From a virus (lineage: Duplodnaviria > Heunggongvirae > Uroviricota > Caudoviricetes), in IMG/VR virus record IMGVR_UViG_2558860161_000009: a stretch of 16,050 nucleotides of DNA; one strand, given 5' to 3'. The notes under the pieces are model-generated. The model was not told where the DNA came from. It did no database searches and was given only the letters and a program-made list of their open reading frames with translations. Position numbers and translations under genes: made by a program. Positions 4,338-16,050 of this stretch are shown piece after piece. Numbering within the stretch: position 1 is the first letter of the stretch; each line of letters starts with the position of its first letter.

Positions 4338-4637
4338 ATGAGAACATATTTATCTGGCTTAACTGCCAGCGGTTATGCACACCCCAAAATTATCCCCGGC
4401 GCTATTTATCTGGATAAGAACGGTAACAGAGTAACGGTAAAAGAACTGATGTTTGACCGTGTTTATTTTATTCGTGATGGCTATTCATTTCATAGTTCGC
4501 TGAACGTGGAGATCTTTATTTGCAGATTCCGGCGGGAAATCCCGCTTTCCAGAAATAACCATGTGTCATGTATGGATGTTGATAAAAAACTACAGGAACT
4601 GAAAAACATGATTGCCGCGTGGAGAGAGCAGAAATGA
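4338..4637 (+). CDS. Hypothetical protein (99 aa)
   Basis: ORF whose stop overlaps the start of the replication gene (ATGA at 4634-4637); no recognisable motif. Confidence 0.5.
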   Translation: MRTYLSGLTASGYAHPKIIPGAIYLDKNGNRVTVKELMFDRVYFIRDGYSFHSSLNVEIFICRFRREIPLSRNNHVSCMDVDKKLQELKNMIAAWREQK

Positions 4638-6757
4638 AAAAAGCGCCAAATTTAAAACACCAGCCGCGTGACAAAATGACGGAAGTCATCATTTTTGCGG
4701 GTAGTAATGCGTGGGCACATGCGAAGCAGTGGCAGGAACAGGACGGGCGACTGGCTGGCGATAACGTGCCTCCTGTCTGGCTTGGAGAGCAACAACTTGC
4801 CGAACTGGACAACCTGCAAATCGTACCGGACGGACGCTATCGCGTGCGTCTCTATCAGGCGGGGTTATTGCGTCCGGGGCTTGTTAATACCATCGGGCAG
4901 AAACTGGCAGCGGCAGGTGTCAGGGATGCTGATTATTACCCTGAAGGAATGCACAGCCAGAAACGGGAGAACTGGCGCGAATATCTGGAACGTGAACGGG
5001 CAGAGCAGGCGGAAAAGAAAAAGGTAGTTGAACTGCCTGTAAAGAAAAAAGAGCCATGCTATCAGGATGATGAATTAAAGCCCCGCGTTGAAAGTCGCGC
5101 CGATGGTGTTTTCTGGGTAACGCCCAAAGTGGATAAGCAGTCAGGTGAAATTATCCGGCCTGAGACGTGGTTATGTTCTCCACTTGAACTACTGGGAACG
5201 GGGGTAATCGGTAAAGAGCATTACCGCGTGATGCGCTGGAAAAAATTCGCAAACCATGAAGTCATAACAATGGCGATCCCGTGTGGTGGCATTGGCGACC
5301 GTGACGGCTGGCGGTTGCTTAAAGATCACGGCCTGAACGTGACAACAAACGGCAAATACAGGGCTATCCTGGCTGACTGGATGCAGTTAAGCGGAAGCCA
5401 TGAGGAATGGCAGCTAAGCACAACAACGGGCTGGCATTTTGGCGCGTACATCATGCCGGATGGTTCAATCATTGGTGATTCAGAAAAACCGATCCTGTTT
5501 ACCGGAAAAAGTGCCGCTGTTAATGGCTATTCGGTTGTGGGTACGGCGGAGGGCTGGCGCGACAGCGTGGCGCGGCTGGCTGGTGGCAATCCGTCCATGA
5601 TGCTGGGTGTTGCCACGTCACTGGCAGCACCTTTGATTGGCCTTGTTGGTGCTGACGGCTTCGGGGTACATCTTTTCGAACAGTCATCGGCAGGGAAAAC
5701 CACCACGCAGAACATCGCTTCAAGTTTATGGGGGGAGCCGGACGCGCAACGGCTGACCTGGTACGGAACGGCGTTAGGTATCGCCAACGAGGCCGAAGCA
5801 CACAACGACGGGCTGTTACCCCTGGATGAAATAGGCCAGGCCGGAAACGCGCGGGAAGTGTCCACGTCAGCCTATACGCTGTTTAACGGTTCGGGGAAAT
5901 TACAGGGGGCGAAGGACGGCGGCAACAGGGAGATCAAACACTGGCGCACGGTGGCAATCAGCACCGGAGAAATGGATGTTGAGACATTCCTCAAAAGTGA
6001 GGGGGTAAAAGTCAAAGCAGGCCAGCTTGTCCGTCTGCTTAACGTACCGATGGAGAAAGCCACGCAATTTCACGAATACAGCACCGGAAAGGCGCACGCA
6101 GACGCGTTAAAGGATGCCTGGACTGCAAATCACGGGGCGGCGGGTCGTGAGTGGGTTAAATGGCTGGCAGACCACCAGCAGGAGGCAAAGGACACGGTAA
6201 GGGAATGCCGCGAACGGTGGCACAACCTGATACCGGAGAGCTACGGCGAGCAGGTCCACCGCGTGGGGGAGCGTTTCGCCATACTGGAGGCCGCACTAGT
6301 GCTTTCCGGTCATATTACTGGCTGGGATGTTCAGGCGTGCCGTGATGCCATTCAGCATAACTTTAATGCCTGGGTGAAGGAGTTCGGCACGGGTAACAGG
6401 GAATTTAAACAGATGGTTGAACAGGCTGAGGCGTTTTTGTCGTCGTTCGGGTTCAGTCGATACCTTCCTTACCCAAACAGTGATGAGCGTGATTTACCAA
6501 TTAAAGATCTTGCCGGATACAGAAAGGGGAGTATCAGAAATGAAGATGATGAGTTCCGCTTTTACACGTTTCCTCATGTGTTTGAGGGTGAGATAGCACA
6601 GGGATTTAATCCGTCTCACTTTGCCCGCGCGTTGAGTGCTGCCGGAATGCTGGAAGCGGGTAACGATCGCCGTTACAAGAAAAAGGCGCTCGGCAAAATT
6701 GGGGGGAAGCAGCATGTTTTTTACGTGCTGATGTTCCAGCCTGAAGCAGAAGATTAA
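4634..6757 (+). CDS. Satellite replication protein, primase/helicase-like (DUF927-type P-loop NTPase)
   Basis: About 707 aa from the ATG at 4634, which is preceded by GGAGAG and overlaps the upstream stop. Walker-A-like SSAGKTT encoded near 5683-5703; large size and position immediately upstream of an iteron cluster. Family assignment from memory of P4 alpha / PICI Pri-Rep-like proteins. Confidence 0.75.
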   Translation: MKKAPNLKHQPRDKMTEVIIFAGSNAWAHAKQWQEQDGRLAGDNVPPVWLGEQQLAELDNLQIVPDGRYRVRLYQAGLLRPGLVNTIGQKLAAAGVRDADYYPEGMHSQKRENWREYLERERAEQAEKKKVVELPVKKKEPCYQDDELKPRVESRADGVFWVTPKVDKQSGEIIRPETWLCSPLELLGTGVIGKEHYRVMRWKKFANHEVITMAIPCGGIGDRDGWRLLKDHGLNVTTNGKYRAILADWMQLSGSHEEWQLSTTTGWHFGAYIMPDGSIIGDSEKPILFTGKSAAVNGYSVVGTAEGWRDSVARLAGGNPSMMLGVATSLAAPLIGLVGADGFGVHLFEQSSAGKTTTQNIASSLWGEPDAQRLTWYGTALGIANEAEAHNDGLLPLDEIGQAGNAREVSTSAYTLFNGSGKLQGAKDGGNREIKHWRTVAISTGEMDVETFLKSEGVKVKAGQLVRLLNVPMEKATQFHEYSTGKAHADALKDAWTANHGAAGREWVKWLADHQQEAKDTVRECRERWHNLIPESYGEQVHRVGERFAILEAALVLSGHITGWDVQACRDAIQHNFNAWVKEFGTGNREFKQMVEQAEAFLSSFGFSRYLPYPNSDERDLPIKDLAGYRKGSIRNEDDEFRFYTFPHVFEGEIAQGFNPSHFARALSAAGMLEAGNDRRYKKKALGKIGGKQHVFYVLMFQPEAED

Positions 6758-6779
6758 CTCCCCTGTGTGAGGTGAAAAG

Positions 6780-6905
6780 TTGCGGGTTATGCGGGTTATC
6801 CTGTGTGTAAGTGCATTAACTGTATGAATAAAAAGGAAATCAATAACCCGCACGTAACCCGCAAAACGGCAGTTATAACCCGCAAAAGTGCGATTATAAC
6901 CCGCA
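6780..6905. repeat. Iteron cluster, probable replication origin: 2 tandem GCGGGTTAT copies followed by 4 inverted (A/G)TAACCCGC copies
   Basis: Forward copies at 6782-6790 and 6791-6799; inverted copies at 6843-6851, 6854-6862, 6875-6883 and 6897-6905 (spacing 11, 21, 22 bp); AT-rich segment 6810-6842 in between; directly downstream of the replication gene. Confidence 0.6.
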
Positions 6906-6968
6906 GAATTTCACCGTAAGGGTGTAAACAAGCGTAACTATCAACGTTAAAACCGGAGAACAGACAGC

Positions 6969-7394
6969 ATGACAGCACAGATAGCTGCTTACGGGCGGTT
7001 GGTGGCTGACCCGCAGTTAAAGACCACCAGCAAAGGGACACAAATGGCGATGGCGAGTATGGCGATTCCTCTTCCGTGCAGCCAGGCAGATGACGGAACA
7101 GCGACGATGTGGTTATCAATTCTGGCGTTTGGCAGACAGGCCGATGCACTGGCAAAACACCACAAAGGCGAGCTGGTGAGCGTGGCGGGTAACATGCAGG
7201 TAAGCCAGTGGACAGGCCAGAACGGGGAAACGCGGCAGGGCTGGCAGGTTATCGCAGACAGCGTAATCAGTGCGCGAACGGCGCGACCTGGTGGCAAAAA
7301 AGGCCAGCAGGGGCAGGCCACTGACGCACTGAACAGGGCAAAACAACAGACAGGCCAGCACGATGACCCGTACGGGGATGAAATACCGTTTTAG
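6969..7394 (+). CDS. ssb: Single-stranded DNA-binding protein (SSB-like)
   Basis: 141-aa product with an OB-fold-like N-terminal part, a Gly/Gln-rich linker (PGGKKGQQGQ) and an acidic C-terminal tail ending DDPYGDEIPF, resembling the SSB C-terminal D-I-P-F tip. Confidence 0.7.
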   Translation: MTAQIAAYGRLVADPQLKTTSKGTQMAMASMAIPLPCSQADDGTATMWLSILAFGRQADALAKHHKGELVSVAGNMQVSQWTGQNGETRQGWQVIADSVISARTARPGGKKGQQGQATDALNRAKQQTGQHDDPYGDEIPF

Positions 7395-7412
7395 CGATAA
7401 CAGGGGGGATAC

Positions 7413-7661
7413 ATGCCAGTGACATTTGAAGAAGTCCAGCAACATAAAAAGTTTCATGGTTTTGATGATCTGGAAACCACGACAGCAAAAAAATATCGCC
7501 GTCTGCTTTCTTCCGATGCGTTGTTTTTTGTAGATCATCATGATTTTCTGCGTAGCTCACTGACAGGGGAAATTTTCGCAACCAACCGTGAGCAGGTGGA
7601 AGCGATGATCGAATATCTGTGGAAAATAAGACGCAGAATGCGGGATTCCATGAAACAGTAA
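7413..7661 (+). CDS. Hypothetical protein (82 aa)
   Basis: ORF 19 nt after ssb, followed by an intrinsic terminator; no recognisable motif. Confidence 0.5.
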   Translation: MPVTFEEVQQHKKFHGFDDLETTTAKKYRRLLSSDALFFVDHHDFLRSSLTGEIFATNREQVEAMIEYLWKIRRRMRDSMKQ

Positions 7662-7670
7662 AGCGATAAA

Positions 7671-7697
7671 GGCCCGGATTTTTCCGGGTTTTCTTTT
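7671..7697 (+). terminator. Rho-independent terminator ending the replication module
   Basis: Stem CCCGGA (7673-7678), loop TTTT, stem TCCGGG (7683-7688), then T-tract TTTTCTTTT (7689-7697). Confidence 0.55.
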
Positions 7698-7934
7698 CAG
7701 GTTTTGTAAATTATTTGTTCGTGGTTGTTTCTGGCTGTTCAGTGATTCTGGCTGATATTTACATACTGATTTTTATGTATATGTTGGCGTGTGGCACTCA
7801 GACGTGAGCCGCCACAATGCCGCCTGACCCCCTGCGCGATGCCGGGTTGATCTGCGAGATGCCGAGAGTGTCGGGCGGCGCTCCCTCCGTGTTGGTTTCA
7901 CGTCCTGAATCTTAACCAATACGAGAAAACCTTC

Positions 7935-9080
7935 ATGAAGAAATTAATCGAACTCCGCCAGCAAAAAACCGCCCTGAAAAACCAGATGCGATCCCTGCTG
8001 GAAAAAGCCGACAGTGAAAACCGCAGCCTGAACGATGACGAGGGCAAACAGTTTGATGAACTGCGTGCAAAAGCCGATTCCCTCGACACAGAAATTTCCC
8101 GTCTTGAAGCTGTTGCGGATGAAGAACGTAACCAGCCTGGTGTTTCCGTCGAAGAGAAAATCACCAAAGATGAACTGCGCTCTTACATTCTGACCGGGGA
8201 AACCCGCAACCTGTCCGGCAGTGTCCCGGCTGATGGTGGCTATACCGTTATTCCCGAGCTGAATAAAGAGATTATGCGCCAGCTTGCCGATGAATCGGTG
8301 ATGCGCAAAATCTGTACCGTTAAAACCATTCACAGCAATGAATTTAAGCAACTGGTTTCCGCTGGTGGCGCGGTGGTTGAGCATGGCGAGGAAGGTGCGG
8401 CACGTAACCAGACGGCAACGCCGAAACTGAACGAAGTCAGCATCCGCCTGTATCCGATCTACGCTTACCCGAAAACCACTCAGGAAATTATCGATTTTTC
8501 CGAAGTCGATATTATGAGCTGGTTATCTTCTGAAATTGGCGACACTTTCGTTGATACCGAAGAAACGGATCTGGTTTCCGGTGACGGCGAGAAAAAAGCT
8601 AAAGGTTTCCTGGCGTTCCCGCGCACTGCGGATAACGACAAAACCCGTCCTTTCGGTACGCTCCAGACGAAAAAAGTTACTGGCAGTCTCAGCGCCGACA
8701 TGCTGATTGACCTGAAATTTACGCTGCGCAATAAGTACCGCAAAAAAGCTGTATGGGTGATGAACTCAAATACAGCCGCCTCCGCACAAAAACTGAAAAA
8801 TGCCACTGGTGATTACATCTGGCGCGATCGTTTACAGGCTGGTGATCCTGATTCTCTGCTGGGGCTTCCGGTTGAATATCTGGAATTTATGCCGGACGGT
8901 GTGATTGCAGTAGGTGACTTTAAGCGCGGTTATTTCATCGTTGACCATGAAACCGGTACGCGTACCCGTCCGGACTTCAGCGAACCCGGATTCATTAACA
9001 TCTATACCCAGAAATATCTGGGCGGTGGTGTGGTGGATTCGAACGCCATCAAGATTCTGGAAATTCAGGCTGGTGAGTAA
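7935..9080 (+). CDS. Major capsid protein, HK97 family, with N-terminal coiled-coil scaffold-like domain
   Basis: 381-aa product: charged coiled-coil-like N-terminus, then a region (GGYTVIPELNKEIMRQLADESVMRKICTVKT...) matching the HK97-type capsid pattern as I recall it. Confidence 0.8.
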   Translation: MKKLIELRQQKTALKNQMRSLLEKADSENRSLNDDEGKQFDELRAKADSLDTEISRLEAVADEERNQPGVSVEEKITKDELRSYILTGETRNLSGSVPADGGYTVIPELNKEIMRQLADESVMRKICTVKTIHSNEFKQLVSAGGAVVEHGEEGAARNQTATPKLNEVSIRLYPIYAYPKTTQEIIDFSEVDIMSWLSSEIGDTFVDTEETDLVSGDGEKKAKGFLAFPRTADNDKTRPFGTLQTKKVTGSLSADMLIDLKFTLRNKYRKKAVWVMNSNTAASAQKLKNATGDYIWRDRLQAGDPDSLLGLPVEYLEFMPDGVIAVGDFKRGYFIVDHETGTRTRPDFSEPGFINIYTQKYLGGGVVDSNAIKILEIQAGE

Positions 9081-9087
9081 TGAGCAA

Positions 9088-9109
9088 GGAGGCTTCGGCC
9101 TCCTTTTTT
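9088..9109 (+). terminator. Rho-independent terminator/attenuator immediately after the capsid gene
   Basis: Stem GGAGGC (9088-9093), loop TTCG, stem GCCTCC (9098-9103), then TTTTTT (9104-9109). Confidence 0.6.
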
Positions 9110-9128
9110 AGCTTCAGGGGATACACCG

Positions 9129-9689
9129 ATGAAAAACACCGATTTTGAAATCCGCACATCTGAACTGACCGCCAGCAATAAAAAGCTGGTGGGGTATGCC
9201 GTTCGCTGGAACAGCCTTTCAGAAATTATCTGGGACGAATTCCGCGAACAGTTCACGCCGGGGGCTTTTGCTGACTATCTGGCGGCGGGTAATGATGTGC
9301 GCTGCCTGTATGAGCATGACTATACCCAACTGCTGGGGCGCACCAAATCCGGCACTCTGGTACTGACTGAGGATAACACCGGGTTACGTTTTGAACTGAC
9401 ACCGCCGGATACCCAGCTTGGAAAAGATGTGCTTACGCTGGTGGAGCGTGGCGACATTACAGGAATGAGCTTTGGTTTTCGCGCATTATGCGAGGAGTGG
9501 AGTATCGCGCAAAAACCGTATTTGCGTACCGTAACCGCCGCTGAACTCCGTGAAATCACAATAACGTCGATGCCTGCTTATCCAGAATCTGGCGTGGAGA
9601 TTGCCCACCGTTCGTTGTTTGCACAGCACCCTGAATTATGCCCGACAGGAAATAATCGTCATCGCTGGTCTGAGCTGGCGGGGTTGTGA
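9129..9689 (+). CDS. Prohead (head maturation) protease, HK97 family
   Basis: 186-aa product with GYAVRWNS...FTPGAFADYL...LYEHD...LGRT...GLRFEL...GDITGMSFGF, characteristic of HK97-type prohead proteases; sits between capsid and portal genes. Confidence 0.8.
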   Translation: MKNTDFEIRTSELTASNKKLVGYAVRWNSLSEIIWDEFREQFTPGAFADYLAAGNDVRCLYEHDYTQLLGRTKSGTLVLTEDNTGLRFELTPPDTQLGKDVLTLVERGDITGMSFGFRALCEEWSIAQKPYLRTVTAAELREITITSMPAYPESGVEIAHRSLFAQHPELCPTGNNRHRWSELAGL

Positions 9690-9690
9690 T

Positions 9691-10905
9691 ATGTGGTGGC
9701 CTTTTAGTCGTAAAAAAAGCGAGCAGCGTAACCTGTCCATTGATGATTTTCTGGCGCTGTCCGGCGTACCGAATACCGGATCCGGAGAATATGTTTCTGC
9801 CGGGACGGCTGAATCATTGCCTGCAGTGATGAACGCGGTTTCTGTCATCGCTGAGGCGGTGGCCACGATGCCGTGTTATCTGTATCTGGTACGTAATGAC
9901 AAGGGCAGGGAGGCGCGGGAATGGCTGGACAGTCACCCGGTAGATATTCTGCTGAATGAGCAGCCTAATTCGTGCCAGACACCTTACCAGTTTAAACGCA
10001 CAATGATGCGTCACTGCCTGCTGAACGGTAACGCCTATGCGGTTATTGAGTGGGGGCAAGACGGGCAGCCAAAATCACTTCATCCTTATGCGCCGGGGTG
10101 TGTTGTACCGGAACGCACAGGCGCACACAAATACCGCTATACCATCACCGAACCCTATACAGGAACGGTGCGCACGTATTTACAGGAAGAAGTTCTGCAT
10201 CTCCGCTATGCCTCGGATGATGGCTTTCTGGGGCGTTCCCCTGTCACGATTTGCCGTGAGGCGCTTGGGCTTGGCCTTGCTCAACAGCGCCACGGAGCCA
10301 GCATTATGAAAGATGGCATGATGGCGGCAGGGATTATCACGTCAGGCGAATGGCTGGACGGCGTGAAAGGTAAACAGGCATTAGATGCTCTGGAACGCTA
10401 CAAGGGGGCGAAAAATGCCGGAAAAACGCCAATCCTTGAAGGGGGCATGGATTACAAGCAACTGGGAATGAGTAACCAGGATGCGGAATGGCTGGCCTCC
10501 CGTCGCTTCTCCATTGAAGACATCGCCCGCATGTTCAACGTATCGCCTATTTTTCTGCAGGAATACAGCAACAGCACCTACAGCAATTTCAGCGAGGCAA
10601 GCCGCGCGTTTCTGACCATGACAATGCGCCCATGGCTGGCGAACTTCGAACAGCAAATCAAGGCCGCTTTGCTGGTGGCTTCTCCCGTACCTGGTACCCG
10701 TTATCTGGTTGAGTTTGATTCAGCCGATTTATTACGCGCCACACCCACCGAACGTTATGCCACGTATGAGAAAGGGATTAAGAACGGGATCATGAATCCG
10801 AACGAAGCCCGTGAGCGTGAGGGTATGCCGCCGCGTGAAGGTGGTGATGAGTTCAGCCAGGCATGGAAACAGACTGTGGAAATTAAAGGGAGAAAAGATG
10901 AGTGA
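9691..10905 (+). CDS. Portal protein, HK97 family
   Basis: Start taken at ATG 9691 (MWWPFSRKK...), 1 nt after the protease stop; the ORF track's 9601 start would overlap the protease gene. Size (404 aa) and position fit a portal. Confidence 0.75.
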   Translation: MWWPFSRKKSEQRNLSIDDFLALSGVPNTGSGEYVSAGTAESLPAVMNAVSVIAEAVATMPCYLYLVRNDKGREAREWLDSHPVDILLNEQPNSCQTPYQFKRTMMRHCLLNGNAYAVIEWGQDGQPKSLHPYAPGCVVPERTGAHKYRYTITEPYTGTVRTYLQEEVLHLRYASDDGFLGRSPVTICREALGLGLAQQRHGASIMKDGMMAAGIITSGEWLDGVKGKQALDALERYKGAKNAGKTPILEGGMDYKQLGMSNQDAEWLASRRFSIEDIARMFNVSPIFLQEYSNSTYSNFSEASRAFLTMTMRPWLANFEQQIKAALLVASPVPGTRYLVEFDSADLLRATPTERYATYEKGIKNGIMNPNEAREREGMPPREGGDEFSQAWKQTVEIKGRKDE

Positions 10906-11200
10906 AGCCAGAATTACACCTGATGAAGTCAGGGCACATCTTCGACTTGATGATGATTTATCCGGTGAAGGCGAACTTCTGAAAATGTATACCGATGCGG
11001 CGCTGGAAGCCTGCCAGAAGCATATCGGGAAACGTTTTGAAGACGGGCTGGAATTTACCCCGGCAATGCGTGTTGGTTGCCTGATGTACATCGCTTTCCT
11101 GTACGAGAACCGGGAAGCGGTTTCACCAGTGGAGCACTCGGAACTGCCTATGGCTATTTCTGCGCTCTGGTCAGTTTATCGTGACGTAGGGGTGTACTGA
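10898..11200 (+). CDS. Head-tail connector (gp6-like DNA-packaging/adaptor) protein
   Basis: Start at ATG 10898 preceded by AAGGGAG and overlapping the portal stop. N-terminus ITPDEVRAHLRLDDDLSGEGELLKMYTDAALEACQKHIG matches the typical connector N-terminal motif. Confidence 0.7.
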   Translation: MSEARITPDEVRAHLRLDDDLSGEGELLKMYTDAALEACQKHIGKRFEDGLEFTPAMRVGCLMYIAFLYENREAVSPVEHSELPMAISALWSVYRDVGVY

Positions 11201-11640
11201 TGCCGTGGCAACCATTAAGGCGATGCACTGAGCCTGGCTGTAATAAGCGCGTGAAGTCCGGCAAGTGTGAAGAGCACAGGCGGGCTGCATGGCGTGCAGA
11301 GGATGCCAGACGGGGACACCGCCGCGCGCGCGGGTATTCCCGACAGTGGGACAAATACCGCGCCCTGTACCTGAGCAAAAACCCGTTATGCGTGCGTTGT
11401 CTGGCTAAGGGGATTTATACGCCAGCTCTTGTGGTGGATCACATCATTCCCATCAATGGCGGCGGTGATGTTCTCTTCTGGCCTGAGTGGAATCACCAGG
11501 CATTGTGCCAGACGTGCCACAACCGTAAGACGACACGGGAAGATCCAGCCACGAAAGCAAACCGTAAAGCGGGCATGTATCGCGAGCAGGAAGAACGGGC
11601 GGCACACCGTAACGACTGGATGTATGGCGATGATGACTGA
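11200..11640 (+). CDS. HNH endonuclease (packaging-associated)
   Basis: Cys-rich zinc-finger-like segments (CTEPGC...CEEH and C..C...CQTCHNRKT) and HNH-like core DHIIPINGGGD...WNHQALC. Start overlaps the connector stop (TGATG). Confidence 0.85.
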   Translation: MPWQPLRRCTEPGCNKRVKSGKCEEHRRAAWRAEDARRGHRRARGYSRQWDKYRALYLSKNPLCVRCLAKGIYTPALVVDHIIPINGGGDVLFWPEWNHQALCQTCHNRKTTREDPATKANRKAGMYREQEERAAHRNDWMYGDDD

Positions 11641-11817
11641 ACAGGAGCAAACCAGGCTGATACGTGGACTGATAAGGCAGCGTGACACATGGAAGACACA
11701 GGAGACAGAGCACAAAGCCAACAGGACAGGGCGCACAAAACGCACCACAGCGAAGCGATTAACCGACCGTGACCGCGAGGTCATGGAATGTTTTCGCAAT
11801 CGCTGGTGAGGCCGTCA

Positions 11818-11877
11818 GAGGGGGTGGGGGTGGTTTTCAGGACGAAACCGTCCCTGCCGGACACCGACCGCCCCCTC
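11818..11877. other. Candidate cos (packaging) site: G-rich nested inverted repeats between the HNH and terS genes
   Basis: GAGGGGG (11818-11824) pairs with CCCCCTC (11871-11877); inner GGTTT (11832-11836) pairs with AAACC (11845-11849); lies in the 288-bp gap directly upstream of terS. Confidence 0.35.
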
Positions 11878-11928
11878 AAATTTTTGTGCACGGTAATTTT
11901 TTTGAAAATAATTGGGCGAAAAAAGAAC

Positions 11929-12285
11929 ATGGCAAGACCACCAAAAGCCCCCGCTTACCTGGATGAAATCGCGGTCAGGCAGTGGAAGGAAAAATCGCGC
12001 CAGCTTTCCGGGCGGGAAGACCTTACCCCCGCCGACTGGAGCAATCTGGAACTGTATTGTGTTAACTACTCCATATACCGCAAAGCCGTCGAAGACCTTG
12101 CGACGCGCGGGTTCAGCATTGTTAACAGTCAGGGCAGCGAGAGCAGAAACCCCGCACTGAGCGCAAAGGCTGACGCAGAAAGAATAATGATCAAAATGGC
12201 TTCTTTGCTGGGTTTTGACCCGGTAAGCCGTCGCAGAAATCCACCGGAAACAGAGGAAGAGGACGAACTTGACCGCCTGGCATGA
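11929..12285 (+). CDS. terS: Terminase small subunit (P27-family-like)
   Basis: Start at ATG 11929 (MARPPKAP...); the ORF track's 11788 start would run through the putative cos region. Internal ELYCVNYSIYRKA and C-terminal LGFDPVSRRR segments resemble P27-type TerS. Confidence 0.7.
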   Translation: MARPPKAPAYLDEIAVRQWKEKSRQLSGREDLTPADWSNLELYCVNYSIYRKAVEDLATRGFSIVNSQGSESRNPALSAKADAERIMIKMASLLGFDPVSRRRNPPETEEEDELDRLA

Positions 12286-13930
12286 GTACGCAGAAGGCGT
12301 AAAAAACGGCAAAATTACGGCCTGTAAACGACTGAAACAGGCCGTTAAACGGTATTTTTCTGACCTTGAAAACTCCCTTTACACGTTCGATCCGGAGGTC
12401 GTGGAGCGGTTTATTGCCTTTTCCCGGGTGTGTCCGCACGTAAAAGGCGCAATGCGCGGTAGTCCCATTGAACTGGAGCCGTGGCAGCAGTTCGCCTTTG
12501 CCTGCATCCTGGGCTTTAAGGTTAAGGCCACCGGACGGCGCAAATACACCAGCGCATTCATTGAAGTACCGCGAAAAAATGCCAAATCCACGGTCGCCGC
12601 TATCCTGGCTAACTGGTTTCTGGTTATGGAAAACGGGCAGCAGGATATTTACACCGCCGCCGTGAGTCGTGATCAGGCGCGGATCGTGTTTGATGATGCG
12701 CGTCAGATGTGCCTTTTATCCCGACCGTTACGAAAGCGGGTAAATATTCAGGCGCACAAGGTGATACACCCGAAAACCAACAGCCTGTTAAAGCCACTGG
12801 CAGCAAAAGCGGCAACCATTGAGGGGACAAACCCGAGTCTTGCCATTGTGGATGAATATCACCTGCACCCAGACAACGGGGTTTATTCCGCACTTGAGCT
12901 GGGGATGGGGGCGCGTCCGGAGGGGCTGTTATTTGCCATCACCACATCGGGGAGCAACGTTGTTTCAGCCTGTAAACAACACTATGACTATTGCTGTCAG
13001 ATACTGGATGGTGAAGAGATGAACGAATCCATGTTCGTTCTGATTTACGAGCTGGATGATGAAAGCGAGGTTGACGATCCGGCGATGTGGATAAAGGCGA
13101 ATCCAAATATCGATGTTTCCGTCGATCGTGAAAAACTGGCCTCAACCATCCAGAAAGCGCGGGGTATTCCGTCGCAGTGGGTGGAAATGCTCACCAAGCG
13201 ATTCAATATCTGGTGTCAGGGGGCTACGCCGTGGATGGGTAACGGTGCATGGGCGGAGTGCGCCGGAACGTTCGCGGAGGCGGATTTATACGGGCAGGAG
13301 TGCTACGCGGGGCTGGACTTATCATCAACCAGCGATATTTCCAGCGTGTGCTATGCCTTTCCGGTCGGTAAAAAGATTATGCTGGTTTCCCGTCACTATC
13401 TGCCGGAATTTCAGCTACAGAACCCCGCCAATAAAAACCGCGCCATCTATCGCCAGTGGGTAAAGGCGGGCTGGATACGCACAACACCGGGTGACTGCAT
13501 TGATTATGACCGTATCCGTGATGACATCATGGCGGATGCAGAGAATTTCAATATCAGGCTGGTGGGCTTCGATACATGGAACGCCACGCACCTGAGGACG
13601 CAGCTACAGGGGGCAGGATTTGAGGTGGAGCCGTTCCCGCAAACATACCTTCGTTTCAGTCCGGCGGCGAAATCGTTCGAAGTTTTTGTTAACCGGAAGG
13701 TGATTGTGCATCGTGGTGATCCGGTGCTGGCCTGGTCAATGAGTAATGTTGTGATGCAGAGTGACGCGAACGCCAATATCAAGCCGAACAAGAAAAAATC
13801 ATCCAACAAGATAGACCCGAGCGTTGCGGCGCTGATGGCGTTTGGCACATTCCAGGCAGAGCATGAGGAATTTGCATTTGATATGAGCGACAGCCACAAA
13901 GAGCGACTTGCGGCGTTTGATGGGGTATGA
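12269..13930 (+). CDS. terL: Terminase large subunit
   Basis: 553-aa product with ATPase-like N-terminal part (VPRKNAKST resembles a Walker A region) and nuclease-like C-terminal part. Start as given in the ORF track is a TTG overlapping the terS 3' end; the exact start is uncertain. Confidence 0.85.
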   Translation: MTAWHEYAEGVKNGKITACKRLKQAVKRYFSDLENSLYTFDPEVVERFIAFSRVCPHVKGAMRGSPIELEPWQQFAFACILGFKVKATGRRKYTSAFIEVPRKNAKSTVAAILANWFLVMENGQQDIYTAAVSRDQARIVFDDARQMCLLSRPLRKRVNIQAHKVIHPKTNSLLKPLAAKAATIEGTNPSLAIVDEYHLHPDNGVYSALELGMGARPEGLLFAITTSGSNVVSACKQHYDYCCQILDGEEMNESMFVLIYELDDESEVDDPAMWIKANPNIDVSVDREKLASTIQKARGIPSQWVEMLTKRFNIWCQGATPWMGNGAWAECAGTFAEADLYGQECYAGLDLSSTSDISSVCYAFPVGKKIMLVSRHYLPEFQLQNPANKNRAIYRQWVKAGWIRTTPGDCIDYDRIRDDIMADAENFNIRLVGFDTWNATHLRTQLQGAGFEVEPFPQTYLRFSPAAKSFEVFVNRKVIVHRGDPVLAWSMSNVVMQSDANANIKPNKKKSSNKIDPSVAALMAFGTFQAEHEEFAFDMSDSHKERLAAFDGV

Positions 13931-14217
13931 CGAGAATGACTGAAACTGATCTACTAAAAATAATTCGCCGCATTACCGGAATCAGTCAGCAGCCTGACGA
14001 ACAGGCTACACAGCCGGACAGCGTGATAGCCGAAAATTACGCGCGTGTGGTGGCTGAGGTAATGCGCCGTGACGGTATTGAGCTTAACGGCGTGGATATG
14101 CGCAACATACGAACCAGAGTTCTTGAGTTGCTGGCATACCGTCGCCGTTCTCAACAACGGAGGGAGAGCGCGAAAAATACTTACCAGTGGAAGAAGCCGG
14201 AACGGTTGCGGCGGTAG
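13927..14217 (+). CDS. Hypothetical protein (96 aa) downstream of terL
   Basis: ATG overlaps the terL stop (ATGA); basic C-terminus; no recognisable motif. Confidence 0.5.
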   Translation: MTRMTETDLLKIIRRITGISQQPDEQATQPDSVIAENYARVVAEVMRRDGIELNGVDMRNIRTRVLELLAYRRRSQQRRESAKNTYQWKKPERLRR

Positions 14218-14544
14218 ATTCCTGATATTCAGTAAAACCACGAATCTGTGGTGTTTACTGGCGCGGTTACGGCGGTGACACGCACCGAGGCAGAACAATT
14301 ACCGTAGGTTAAAGCGACAGTATTCACACCAAAGGCAGAAATTAGCGGTTAACGTAACTGACTGATATTTTCAGGAACAGCCAACGGCTGAGGCCGGAGC
14401 TATAAGAATAGCTTTGGGTACAGTCCTCAGTTTTGAGGGATGTTAACCAACTGAATAATAAGCAAACCTCAAAATTGAGTTTTGTATCTGCCTGAGTTAT
14501 TTCTGTGCTAACTTGTTGATATTCCCGACGGCCCAAAAATGGGT

Positions 14545-14674
14545 TGGCTGGTGGGTGAGTTGCAGATTTGCAACTCGACCATGAAACTACGGAAACTACC
14601 CGTAGTTTGGGTAGTAAGAGCAACACCCAGATTTTGGGGCTTACTCGCGATCCCCAAATAAAGGGGATCGGTGG
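14545..14674. repeat. Copy 1 of a ~130-bp hairpin-rich direct repeat
   Basis: Nearly identical by eye to 14982-15108. Contains hairpins GAGTTGCA-GATT-TGCAACTC, AACTACGG-AAACTAC-CCGTAGTT and GATCCCC-AAATAAA-GGGGATC. Confidence 0.7.
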
Positions 14675-14702
14675 CATCACTGGCCCCACTTTCCTGATGT
14701 GT

Positions 14703-14857
14703 TTGCGGGTTATTTGGGAGAGGTTGCGGGTTATTTTGAATGACTTGCGGGTTACGATTTGGCTAACATTTGAACATGTCATTTTTCAACGCATTGATAT
14801 TAAATAATAAAAAATACTTAGCACGCGAAGATAACCCGCTAACCCGCATAACCCGCA
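14703..14857. repeat. Second iteron cluster of the same family as 6780-6905 (ori-like)
   Basis: TTGCGGGTTA(T/C) at 14703-14713, 14724-14734 and 14745-14755 (exactly 21 bp apart); AT-rich spacer 14756-14830; inverted (T)AACCCGC at 14833-14839, 14841-14847 and 14851-14857; then TATATATATA. Confidence 0.6.
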
Positions 14858-14981
14858 CTGTTTTGTATATATATACGAAAAATTGCATTCAGGAGGGGTA
14901 GCAAAATCCCTACCGTCTCTTATCTCTTGGAGTGCCCGCCTCTTCGAATTTTAACCCCCGTGAAATTACAAAATTTCCCTG

Positions 14982-15108
14982 ACTGATGGCGAGTTGCAGA
15001 TCTGCAACTCGACTATGAAACTACGGAAACTACCCGTAGTTTGGGTAGTAAGAGTAACACCCAGATTTTGGGGCTTACTTGCGATACCCAAATACAGGGG
15101 ATCGGTGG
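14982..15108. repeat. Copy 2 of the ~130-bp hairpin-rich direct repeat
   Basis: Aligned by eye to copy 1 with a handful of substitutions (for example GATTTG to GATCTG, AGCAAC to AGTAAC, TCGCGATCC to TTGCGATAC). Confidence 0.7.
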
Positions 15109-15513
15109 AAGAAATATCGTTTCTCATATGTGAGTACCGAGGGCGGAATTCCGCCTTCGGTTACTTATTGTGCTCATGCACAGGGAGGGGCGGGTCAAAT
15201 CTCTGTACCCTGACGTCTTCCGGACTGCCCGCTCCATCGATTTTTTATACCCGCGAAAAATGCTTCACGCTGGTGGGCATGATGCGTGGGGATGCTGATA
15301 ATGGGTTATTGTGGGATAGATGTCTCATACAATAAGAGATTCATAATTTGCTTTTTAATACTGTTATACTCGCCGCCTTTCTACCGTGCTCATGCTTTCG
15401 CATATTTTCGGCTTTGTGCAATAATCCGTATATCACTCGGTGTATCACTTTTAGCTAAAATGCATGGCGTGTTTGTTAATTTAACTGATTAAAATCAGTG
15501 GGATATAAAGTTT

Positions 15514-16050
15514 ATGAAACATATTGTAGAAGTAATGATCCCCGAAGCGGAGATTAAAGCGCGTATCGCCGAACTGGGTCGTCAGATTACTGAGCGTTAC
15601 AAAGACAGCGGCAGCGATATGGTGCTGGTTGGTCTGCTGCGTGGCTCATTTATGTTTATGGCGGACCTGTGCCGTGAAGTTCAGGTATCTCATGAAGTCG
15701 ACTTTATGACCGCCTCCAGCTACGGTAGCGGCATGTCCACCACCCGTGATGTGAAAATCCTCAAAGATCTGGATGAAGATATCCGTGGCAAGGACGTGCT
15801 GATTGTTGAAGATATCATCGACTCGGGGAATACACTGTCGAAAGTGCGTGAGATCTTAAGCCTGCGCGAACCGAAGTCGCTGGCGATTTGTACGCTGCTG
15901 GATAAACCGTCCCGTCGTGAAGTGAACGTCCCGGTAGAATTTATTGGTTTCTCGATCCCGGATGAGTTTGTGGTGGGTTACGGCATTGATTACGCACAGC
16001 GTTACCGTCATCTGCCGTATATCGGCAAAGTGATTCTGCTGGACGAGTAA
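15514..16050 (+). CDS. hpt: Hypoxanthine phosphoribosyltransferase
   Basis: 178-aa product with the type I PRTase PRPP-binding motif [14 protein letters not shown]; the sequence matches E. coli Hpt as I remember it. Complete gene ending in TAA at 16048-16050. Confidence 0.95.

Follow-up and report, generated by a model that had tools for sequence, protein, structure and literature searches.

An iteron cluster near the packaging end of an E. coli satellite island (cluster B) is, as sequence comparison indicates with high confidence, the second unit of the replication origin of the island's DUF927 Rep protein, displaced to the cos end from its partner unit beside the Rep gene (cluster A). By analogy with P4 ori/crr, Rep probably still binds B, which would serve as a second start site or as a cis partner of A. 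The DNA analysed is a single stretch of 16,050 bp, referred to here as the window, in which cluster A lies at 6780-6905 and cluster B at 14703-14857. An earlier note, made from the letters alone, had described B as an origin-like module built from the repeat found beside the replication gene, had likened the pair of clusters to the ori and crr sites of phage P4, and had offered the origin of a decayed tandem satellite as an alternative.

Results

The island and its limits

The window matches E. coli B1172 identically, between gcd and hpt. According to Pfam matches and RefSeq annotation, the gene order begins with integrase, DUF6387, HTH, ORF6N, YlcI, an Icd-like gene and DUF4222, continues with a 707-aa DUF927 protein, SSB, HK97-type capsid, protease, portal and connector, and ends with HNH, P27-type TerS and TerL; the same two sources place no tail genes in the island. 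With int, a Rep-origin module, unidirectional genes and its own capsid, protease, portal, connector, HNH, TerS and TerL, the element has the architecture described for capsid-forming PICIs (Alqurainy et al., bioRxiv 10.1101/2022.09.08.507074), and judged by gene content it is a capsid-forming PICI (cf-PICI) of E. coli of about 15.7 kb.

The island is a discrete, att-bounded element at a specific chromosomal site. Three-way alignment with the empty site of K-12 shows that the att core, ATGAAACATAYTGTAGAAG, coincides with the 19 nt that begin hpt. Its right-hand copy (attR core, ATGAAACATATTGTAGAAG, 15514-15532, + strand) forms the right island boundary, and in all other E. coli genomes the alignment with the window starts no earlier than 15513. 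With up to 3 mismatches allowed, the core has only two copies in the 37-kb locus (L001 3509 and window 15514) and is not repeated on either side of cluster B. Because the core is found only at the two island ends, B must lie within the island, about 650 bp from its right end. Since the island inserts at the first 19 nt of hpt, the hpt promoter/RBS region of this strain is island DNA and not K-12 sequence, and integration rebuilds the 5' end of the gene (window 15452-15532; L001 3300-3530). The hpt-integrated form is present in only about 12 of 5,426 E. coli genomes. A GTATATCACT-type tandem repeat, GTATATCACTCGGTGTATCACT, is found near both island ends (window 15429-15451, + strand; L001 3655-3677 on the left, just 5' of int). 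The K-12 empty-site alignment rules it out as the att core and thus as the crossover core; these repeats are probably a pair of Int arm-type sites, and analogous GGTGTAGTTA tandems are present in L002, L003 and L067.

Two iteron clusters with one repeat word

The 8-mer GCGGGTTA has 12 exact matches in the window, compared with a mean of 0.57 expected from dinucleotide-preserving shuffles, and this number was reached in none of 200 such shuffles. All 12 copies are confined to clusters A and B, six in each, which bears out the earlier view that both clusters use the same repeat unit. Cluster A, the Rep-proximal origin unit, starts 23 bp past the Rep stop codon and consists of two direct iterons (6780-6799, with the word at 6782 and 6791 on the + strand), a 44-bp AT-rich spacer (6800-6843) and four inverted iterons (6844-6904, with the word at 6844, 6855, 6876 and 6897 on the - strand). 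The left arm of cluster B (14703-14755, + strand) contains three direct iterons, TTGCGGGTTAY, with a period of exactly 21 bp (word at 14705, 14726 and 14747). Its right arm (14831-14857, - strand) contains three inverted iterons, ATAACCCGC, TAACCCGC and ATAACCCGC, with a period of 8-9 bp (word at 14832, 14840 and 14849). A 77-bp spacer with a GC content of 0.28-0.32 separates the opposed iteron sets; the AT-rich spacer feature at 14756-14830, the presumed melting region, includes a conserved TTGATATTAAA block. The GTTTTGTATATATATACGAAAAATT element that closes cluster B (14860-14884, + strand) hardly varies among copies (0.003 diversity per site), and a (TA)5 run is located 3' of the cluster at 14866-14875. 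Exact-word counts, positions and spacing thus agree with the coordinates and description that the earlier note gave for B.

SaPI origins lie directly 3' of rep and require two or more opposed iterons flanking either side of an AT region (PMC9371898), and Gram-negative PICI origins contain two iteron sets around an AT-rich region (PMC6092414). Taken alone, each cluster of the window has inward-pointing iterons flanking an AT-rich spacer, with three + and three - iterons in B and two + and four - iterons in A. The location directly 3' of rep is that of A and not of B, which is 7.9 kb from the Rep stop codon and immediately upstream of a cos-like copy, cos #1. The layout of B and the word that it shares with A support its interpretation as an origin-type module. 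The island therefore carries two separated cis sites, 7.9 kb apart, with a common, putatively initiator-binding repeat, and "two separated clusters for one initiator" is an apt description of it, the att core being present only at the island ends.

Several further properties of cluster B were noted. The IHF consensus WATCAANNNNTTR has only two matches in the window, both on the - strand: one (14787-14799) falls in the conserved block of the AT-rich spacer of B, and the other (14509-14521) lies just ahead of the Chi site and 121-bp unit described below. A G run between the first two direct iterons (14713-14724) varies by 1 nt in length among copies, and the (TA)n run after B (14866-14875) ranges from (TA)5 to (TA)7. 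Open reading frames overlapping B are not conserved, and the G and TA runs of its copies differ by indels of 1, 2 and 4 nt; B is therefore non-coding. Neither an Rfam gathering scan of the window nor an E-value scan of 14200-15520 gave a match, and the window contains no tRNA or tmRNA genes, so neither B nor its flanking sequence corresponds to a known RNA gene.

Clusters A and B adjoin in related islands

In a classical PICI (L004) and in an O157:H7 cf-PICI that is probably of the EcCIEDL933 lineage (L005), A and B adjoin in the intergenic region 3' of the DUF927 gene. The order is two direct, four inverted, one inverted and two direct iterons, an AT-rich spacer, three inverted iterons and a TATATATATA run, and the next gene begins about 25 nt past this run. 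Eight IMG/VR loci have the same contiguous arrangement. Outside E. coli, the comparison took in twenty loci from E. albertii, Serratia, Rahnella, Pantoea, Citrobacter, Yersinia, Cedecea and other genera that encode DUF927 Rep homologs at 55-75% identity. Five other iteron words occur among them (GTGGGTTA, CGTGGTTCA, GTTGGTTCA, CTTATCCCA and CTTGTCCCA), and 12 of the 20 loci keep the contiguous spacing pattern of 2 direct, 4+1 inverted, 2 direct and 2-3 inverted iterons. Contiguous A and B are seen in islands from ten genera besides that of E. coli.

The contiguity and shared spacing of the two clusters across these relatives make A and B the two parts of a single bipartite origin, about 300 bp long, and each part has, judged by its iterons and spacer, the full SaPI/PICI-type layout. 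With A and B side by side in relatives, the window shows the split form of that origin: its homology to the contiguous form ends right after the last iteron of A (at about 6907), and the SSB gene comes next. By this homology B is not an independent second invention but a displaced half of the Rep origin. The earlier note had proposed a comparison with related islands, and had considered that intact relatives always carrying one cluster would speak against its reading. Both clusters do occur in one element (L004, L005 and the 12 loci of other genera), and contiguous and split relatives alike carry both. In Yersinia pekkanenii (L014), three whole-origin copies are found within 6 kb (7143-7403, 11725-11985 and 12906-13196), which suggests tandem or nested islands.

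Recurrence and conservation of the split layout

The split layout is also present in a cf-PICI at yifB (L067), in an island without capsid genes and with different cargo, where A and B are 10.6 kb apart (L066), and in six IMG/VR loci with A-B distances of 7.7-9.2 kb. Three Serratia loci (L016, L017 and L023) have split origins as well, each with its own cognate word. Across 5,426 complete E. coli genomes, megablast detects A in 231, B in 183 and either in 288, these being raw totals in which clonal relatives are counted separately; contiguous forms account for about 140 genomes. From these figures we estimate, by set arithmetic on the counts and not genome by genome, that about 90 genomes have the split layout, with varying cargo and att sites, that about 57 have B without A, and that at most about one has A without any B. 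Wherever both coordinates were at hand, the two clusters had the same orientation and a separation of 7.8-10.6 kb.

The papers searched place PICI origins only immediately 3' of rep (PMC6092414; PMC9371898). None of the literature searched describes a PICI origin that is split or double, or reports an experiment on a bipartite origin of a DUF927 Rep. The split layout of the E. coli islands, which recurs in related islands, does not seem to have been described.

In two of the split islands, the DNA between the clusters has content of its own. In L066, three large genes without annotation (843, 686 and 918 aa) lie within the interval 6644-13991, after SSB/ProQ/PerC and ahead of B; they may be accessory or defence cargo. 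In the Serratia locus L017, where A is 4.7 kb from the distal B, P2-type baseplate/spike homologs (gpV apex motif, hub gp41) lie between the two clusters at 12100-16650.

Among 24 distinct distal copies of B, diversity in the direct iterons is 0.020 per site compared with 0.12-0.14 in the spacers, a roughly six-fold difference (permutation p=0.00015). In the alignment, the inverted triple of the right arm is fully intact in all copies except those of L066 and L005; the apparent conservation of this arm is biased, because the pattern with which most IMG/VR copies of B were retrieved contained that triple. The closing GTTTTGTATATATATACGAAAAATT element is common to contiguous and split forms, and to the E. 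albertii locus L006 despite the different iteron word of that island. In every distal copy of B, a nearly invariant TTTTGTATATATATACGAAAAATTG element is followed directly by a cos-like unit.

Rep and iteron specificity

The Rep gene occupies 4634-6757 on the + strand and encodes an initiator of the DUF927 primase/helicase type (Pfam DUF927, E=2.8e-47; RefSeq annotation). Among solved structures, the protein has hits to the SaPI Rep helicases 8tch (5e-15) and 5dgk (1.6e-4). SaPI Reps are initiator-helicases in which a C-terminal winged helix reads the iterons (PMC9371898). Among 23 homologs of the window Rep, the iteron word co-varies with the Rep C-terminus, and sequence comparison makes the C-terminal ~100 aa the likely iteron-reading domain. 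The word in B is that of A, cognate to the specificity domain of the resident Rep, and the same correspondence is found in L006, where the word has changed. The L006 Rep is 94% identical to the window Rep in its core and only 42% identical at the C-terminus, which resembles Reps that use CTTATCCCA. Cluster A and the distal cluster B of L006, 2.2 kb apart, both use CTTGTCCCA, with a layout of three direct iterons (21-bp period), an AT spacer and three inverted iterons (9-bp period). The SSB gene between them remains at backbone similarity to the E. coli islands (89.5% nt), as does the TATATATACGAAAAATTGCATTCAGGAGGGG sequence 3' of B (88-95%). Since the intervening and following DNA stays at backbone similarity, the A and B patches must have switched word together.

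The opposite end of the protein has a history of its own. The N-terminal ~150 aa of Rep (within residues 1-160, window 4634-5110) are 62-94% identical in the PICI primases of L002 and L003, which are unrelated to the window Rep beyond this region; from these alignments the N-terminus looks like a module shuffled onto different primase-helicase bodies.

Organisation of the right end

Reading from left to right, the right end of the island consists of a Chi site with a 121-bp unit, B with cos #1, a mutated Chi with a second 121-bp unit, a hairpin with cos #2, and a further Chi. The first Chi site, GCTGGTGG (14547-14554, + strand), forms the left edge of the first 121-bp unit (14554-14674, + strand), which is hairpin-rich, contains AAACTAC/GTAGTTT repeats and is not an att site. 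Cos-like unit #1 (14885-14965, + strand) is a diverged copy that resembles cos #2 and the single cos found 3' of B in L002, L006, L066 and L067; a cos directly follows B in every distal-type copy. The second 121-bp unit (14988-15108, + strand) is 94% identical to the first and precedes a GC-rich terminator-like hairpin (15136-15161, + strand), cos #2 (15183-15262, + strand) and a Chi site directly after it (15269-15276, + strand). Cos #2 matches the termini or cos of phages with HNH and P27-type TerS: it is 82-95% identical to sequences of SfII, SfI, SfV, SfIV, ST64B and phiP27, annotated there as cos-site, and the SfV record begins at window position 15219 and that of SfI ends at 15235. Such a phage-like cos fits the P27-TerS/HNH/TerL set of the island.

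The 121-bp direct repeat that brackets B was overlooked in the earlier note. It is single-copy at the right end of L003 and L004 and is found in many other genomes; the 71 copies retrieved (31 distinct), mostly from IMG/VR loci, are highly similar to each other. In the islands inspected (L003, L004 and the window) the unit is upstream of cos at the right end, usually with a terminator-like hairpin following. Its predicted RNA fold has a z score of -5.3, one palindrome-preserving double change distinguishes copies, and nothing in Rfam matches it. Possible roles for the unit are recognition by TerS and action as a 3'UTR RNA. Compared with L004, an additional 434 bp is present in the window. The doubled right end is rare (about 5-12 genomes and four IMG/VR loci), and two cos sites are already known in EcCICFT073 (PMC6092414).

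Chi sites are abundant throughout: GCTGGTGG has 13 copies in the 16-kb window, ten of them on the + strand, compared with 0.49 expected from shuffles, and a Chi lies directly 3' of cluster A in the split loci L006, L016, L017 and L023. This abundance may protect cos-cut or rolling-circle DNA from RecBCD. We also considered B as a mimic of a helper-phage origin. When 14500-15300 was compared by blastn with 50,697 phage records, the sole record containing B was a 2-kb O157 fragment, and real phages matched only the cos; this possibility was rejected.

Proposed function of cluster B and alternatives

In the mechanism that we infer, the C-terminal DNA-binding domain of Rep would bind the GCGGGTTA iterons of both clusters, and opposed Rep assemblies at each cluster would melt the AT-rich spacer. 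Cluster B would then contribute to replication either by initiating in its own right or by assisting A in cis, the two being brought together by Rep in a loop of the kind associated with P4 ori/crr and R6K gamma.

Copies of B that lack a cognate Rep bear on this proposal. Besides the estimated 57 or so E. coli genomes with B and no A, the islands L002, L049, L051 and L056 carry B at the cos end together with a Rep whose C-terminal part is different and a complete origin of their own, with the words GTCTACC (L002), CTCTACC (L049) and TGTTCACC (L051 and L056). These orphan copies at the cos end indicate that B can persist without its cognate Rep and travels with the terL/cos module. Because B also occurs in islands with unrelated Rep and iteron sets, its presence alone is no proof of function. 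Orphan copies have iterons that look no less intact than those of cognate ones. In a Serratia locus (L013) A is present with no B within 10 kb, so unit A may suffice alone.

B could accordingly be seen as a passenger relic, an origin half linked by recombination to the cos/packaging end and carried along without a role in replication. The orphan copies would suit this explanation, as would the location of B about 200 bp to 1 kb 3' of terL whatever the Rep type, with cf-PICI TerL proteins 97-100% identical, and the strong mosaicism of PICIs, whose breakpoints fall at iteron edges. Nevertheless we consider it unlikely, if the leading alternative. A passenger would not be expected to keep its distal iterons some six times more conserved than its spacers, nor to have changed word in L006 in step with A and the Rep C-terminus across DNA that stayed at backbone similarity; split forms with cognate words, moreover, occur in several genera, and B is present in nearly every E. 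coli genome with a split-type A.

A bolder proposal, which we hold to be a good deal more doubtful, combines two elements: B would be an obligatory long-range partner of A via looping by Rep that spans half of the circular replicon, and B and cos together would form a portable replicate-and-package cassette, usable in trans by a cf-PICI whose Rep is GCGGGTTA-specific. If this were true, islands with a foreign Rep that carry B and cos could be replicated and packaged by a cf-PICI, one satellite exploiting another.

A regulatory role, in which B titrates or handcuffs Rep (copy control, incompatibility) or serves as a Rep-regulated operator, and is not an initiation site, strikes us as improbable. 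P1 incA and other auxiliary iteron clusters of plasmids are examples of Rep-titrating or handcuffing loci; B likewise reuses the iteron word of the origin at a distance, and orphan copies could act against competing islands. However, B is no plain iteron array: its opposed iterons, AT-rich spacer and TA run make up a full origin layout, and most relatives have it within the origin. A consensus scan finds no sigma-70-like promoter in B, and an over-replicating induced satellite has little obvious need for negative copy control.

It is more improbable still that B belongs to the packaging signal as an accessory, cosQ-side site read by terminase. The repeats of B are Rep iterons, which change with the Rep C-terminus and not with TerS. 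A cos-like unit does lie within about 30 bp of B in every distal-type copy, and the closing TATATATA element is nearly invariant, but B is away from cos in the contiguous forms and phages that share the cos are without B.

The alternative raised earlier, in which a second satellite integrated in tandem and then decayed to leave B as its origin, is scarcely credible. The 121-bp direct repeats bracketing B and the second cos-like copy might suggest it, but the att core has no copies other than those at the island ends, the 121-bp repeat belongs to the right end of PICIs, where L003 and L004 have one copy each, and occurs in many genomes, no integrase or Rep remnant lies between its two copies, and B and cos are arranged in the same way without duplication in L067, L066, L006 and L002.

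Discussion

Our preferred reading thus remains that B is a displaced, probably still functional, unit of the Rep origin. What is new here is that the DUF927-Rep replicon, widespread in enterobacterial PICIs including capsid-forming ones, appears to have a two-unit origin, that its second unit may be located kilobases from the first, next to the packaging site, and that the split layout stays matched to the specificity domain of the initiator. If the distal unit is active, the island would have two start sites or long-range looping by its initiator as in P4, and its replication and packaging signals would be physically coupled. This bears on satellite amplification, on module exchange between islands and on the design of synthetic PICI vectors, which could be crippled if built without the distal unit.

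The island resembles SaPI/PICI origins (PMC6092414; PMC9371898) in its homologous Rep, its opposed short iterons around an AT-rich spacer, the location of cluster A directly 3' of the Rep gene, and a specificity that tracks the Rep C-terminus. It differs from them in having two units and not one, the second of which is 7.9 kb from the Rep gene and adjoins cos.

The ori and crr of P4 are reportedly cis-acting sites about 4.5 kb apart, both of which the alpha primase-helicase is said to bind. The window island is similarly a small satellite with one initiator and two iteron clusters kilobases apart, one of them directly 3' of the initiator gene. Unlike P4, however, its Rep has a DUF927/SaPI-Rep-like core and its word is GCGGGTTA, not TGTTCACC, so that it does not combine a P4 alpha-type initiator with TGTTCACC type I iterons; furthermore, its two sites are homologous to halves of one contiguous origin. 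P4-like TGTTCACC origins are present in the sister PICIs L003 and L051. As a functional analogy, the parallel with P4 ori/crr would be a reasonable one.

Compared with cf-PICIs of the EcCIEDL933 type, the island has the same gene set, lacks tail genes and is of similar size (about 15.7 kb). The O157:H7 cf-PICI L005 has an uninterrupted A-B origin next to its Rep gene, whereas in the window island and its close relatives B is at the cos end. The window island also has a duplicated right-end unit and two cos copies.

Finally, plasmids provide examples of auxiliary iteron clusters, among them the R6K gamma enhancer with its distant alpha and beta origins, and P1 incA. These resemble the present case in placing extra clusters of the initiator repeat at a distance, which allows looping or handcuffing. 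They are plain arrays or minimal origins in plasmids under copy control, whereas B has all the parts of an origin-like unit and belongs to a satellite that is inducible.
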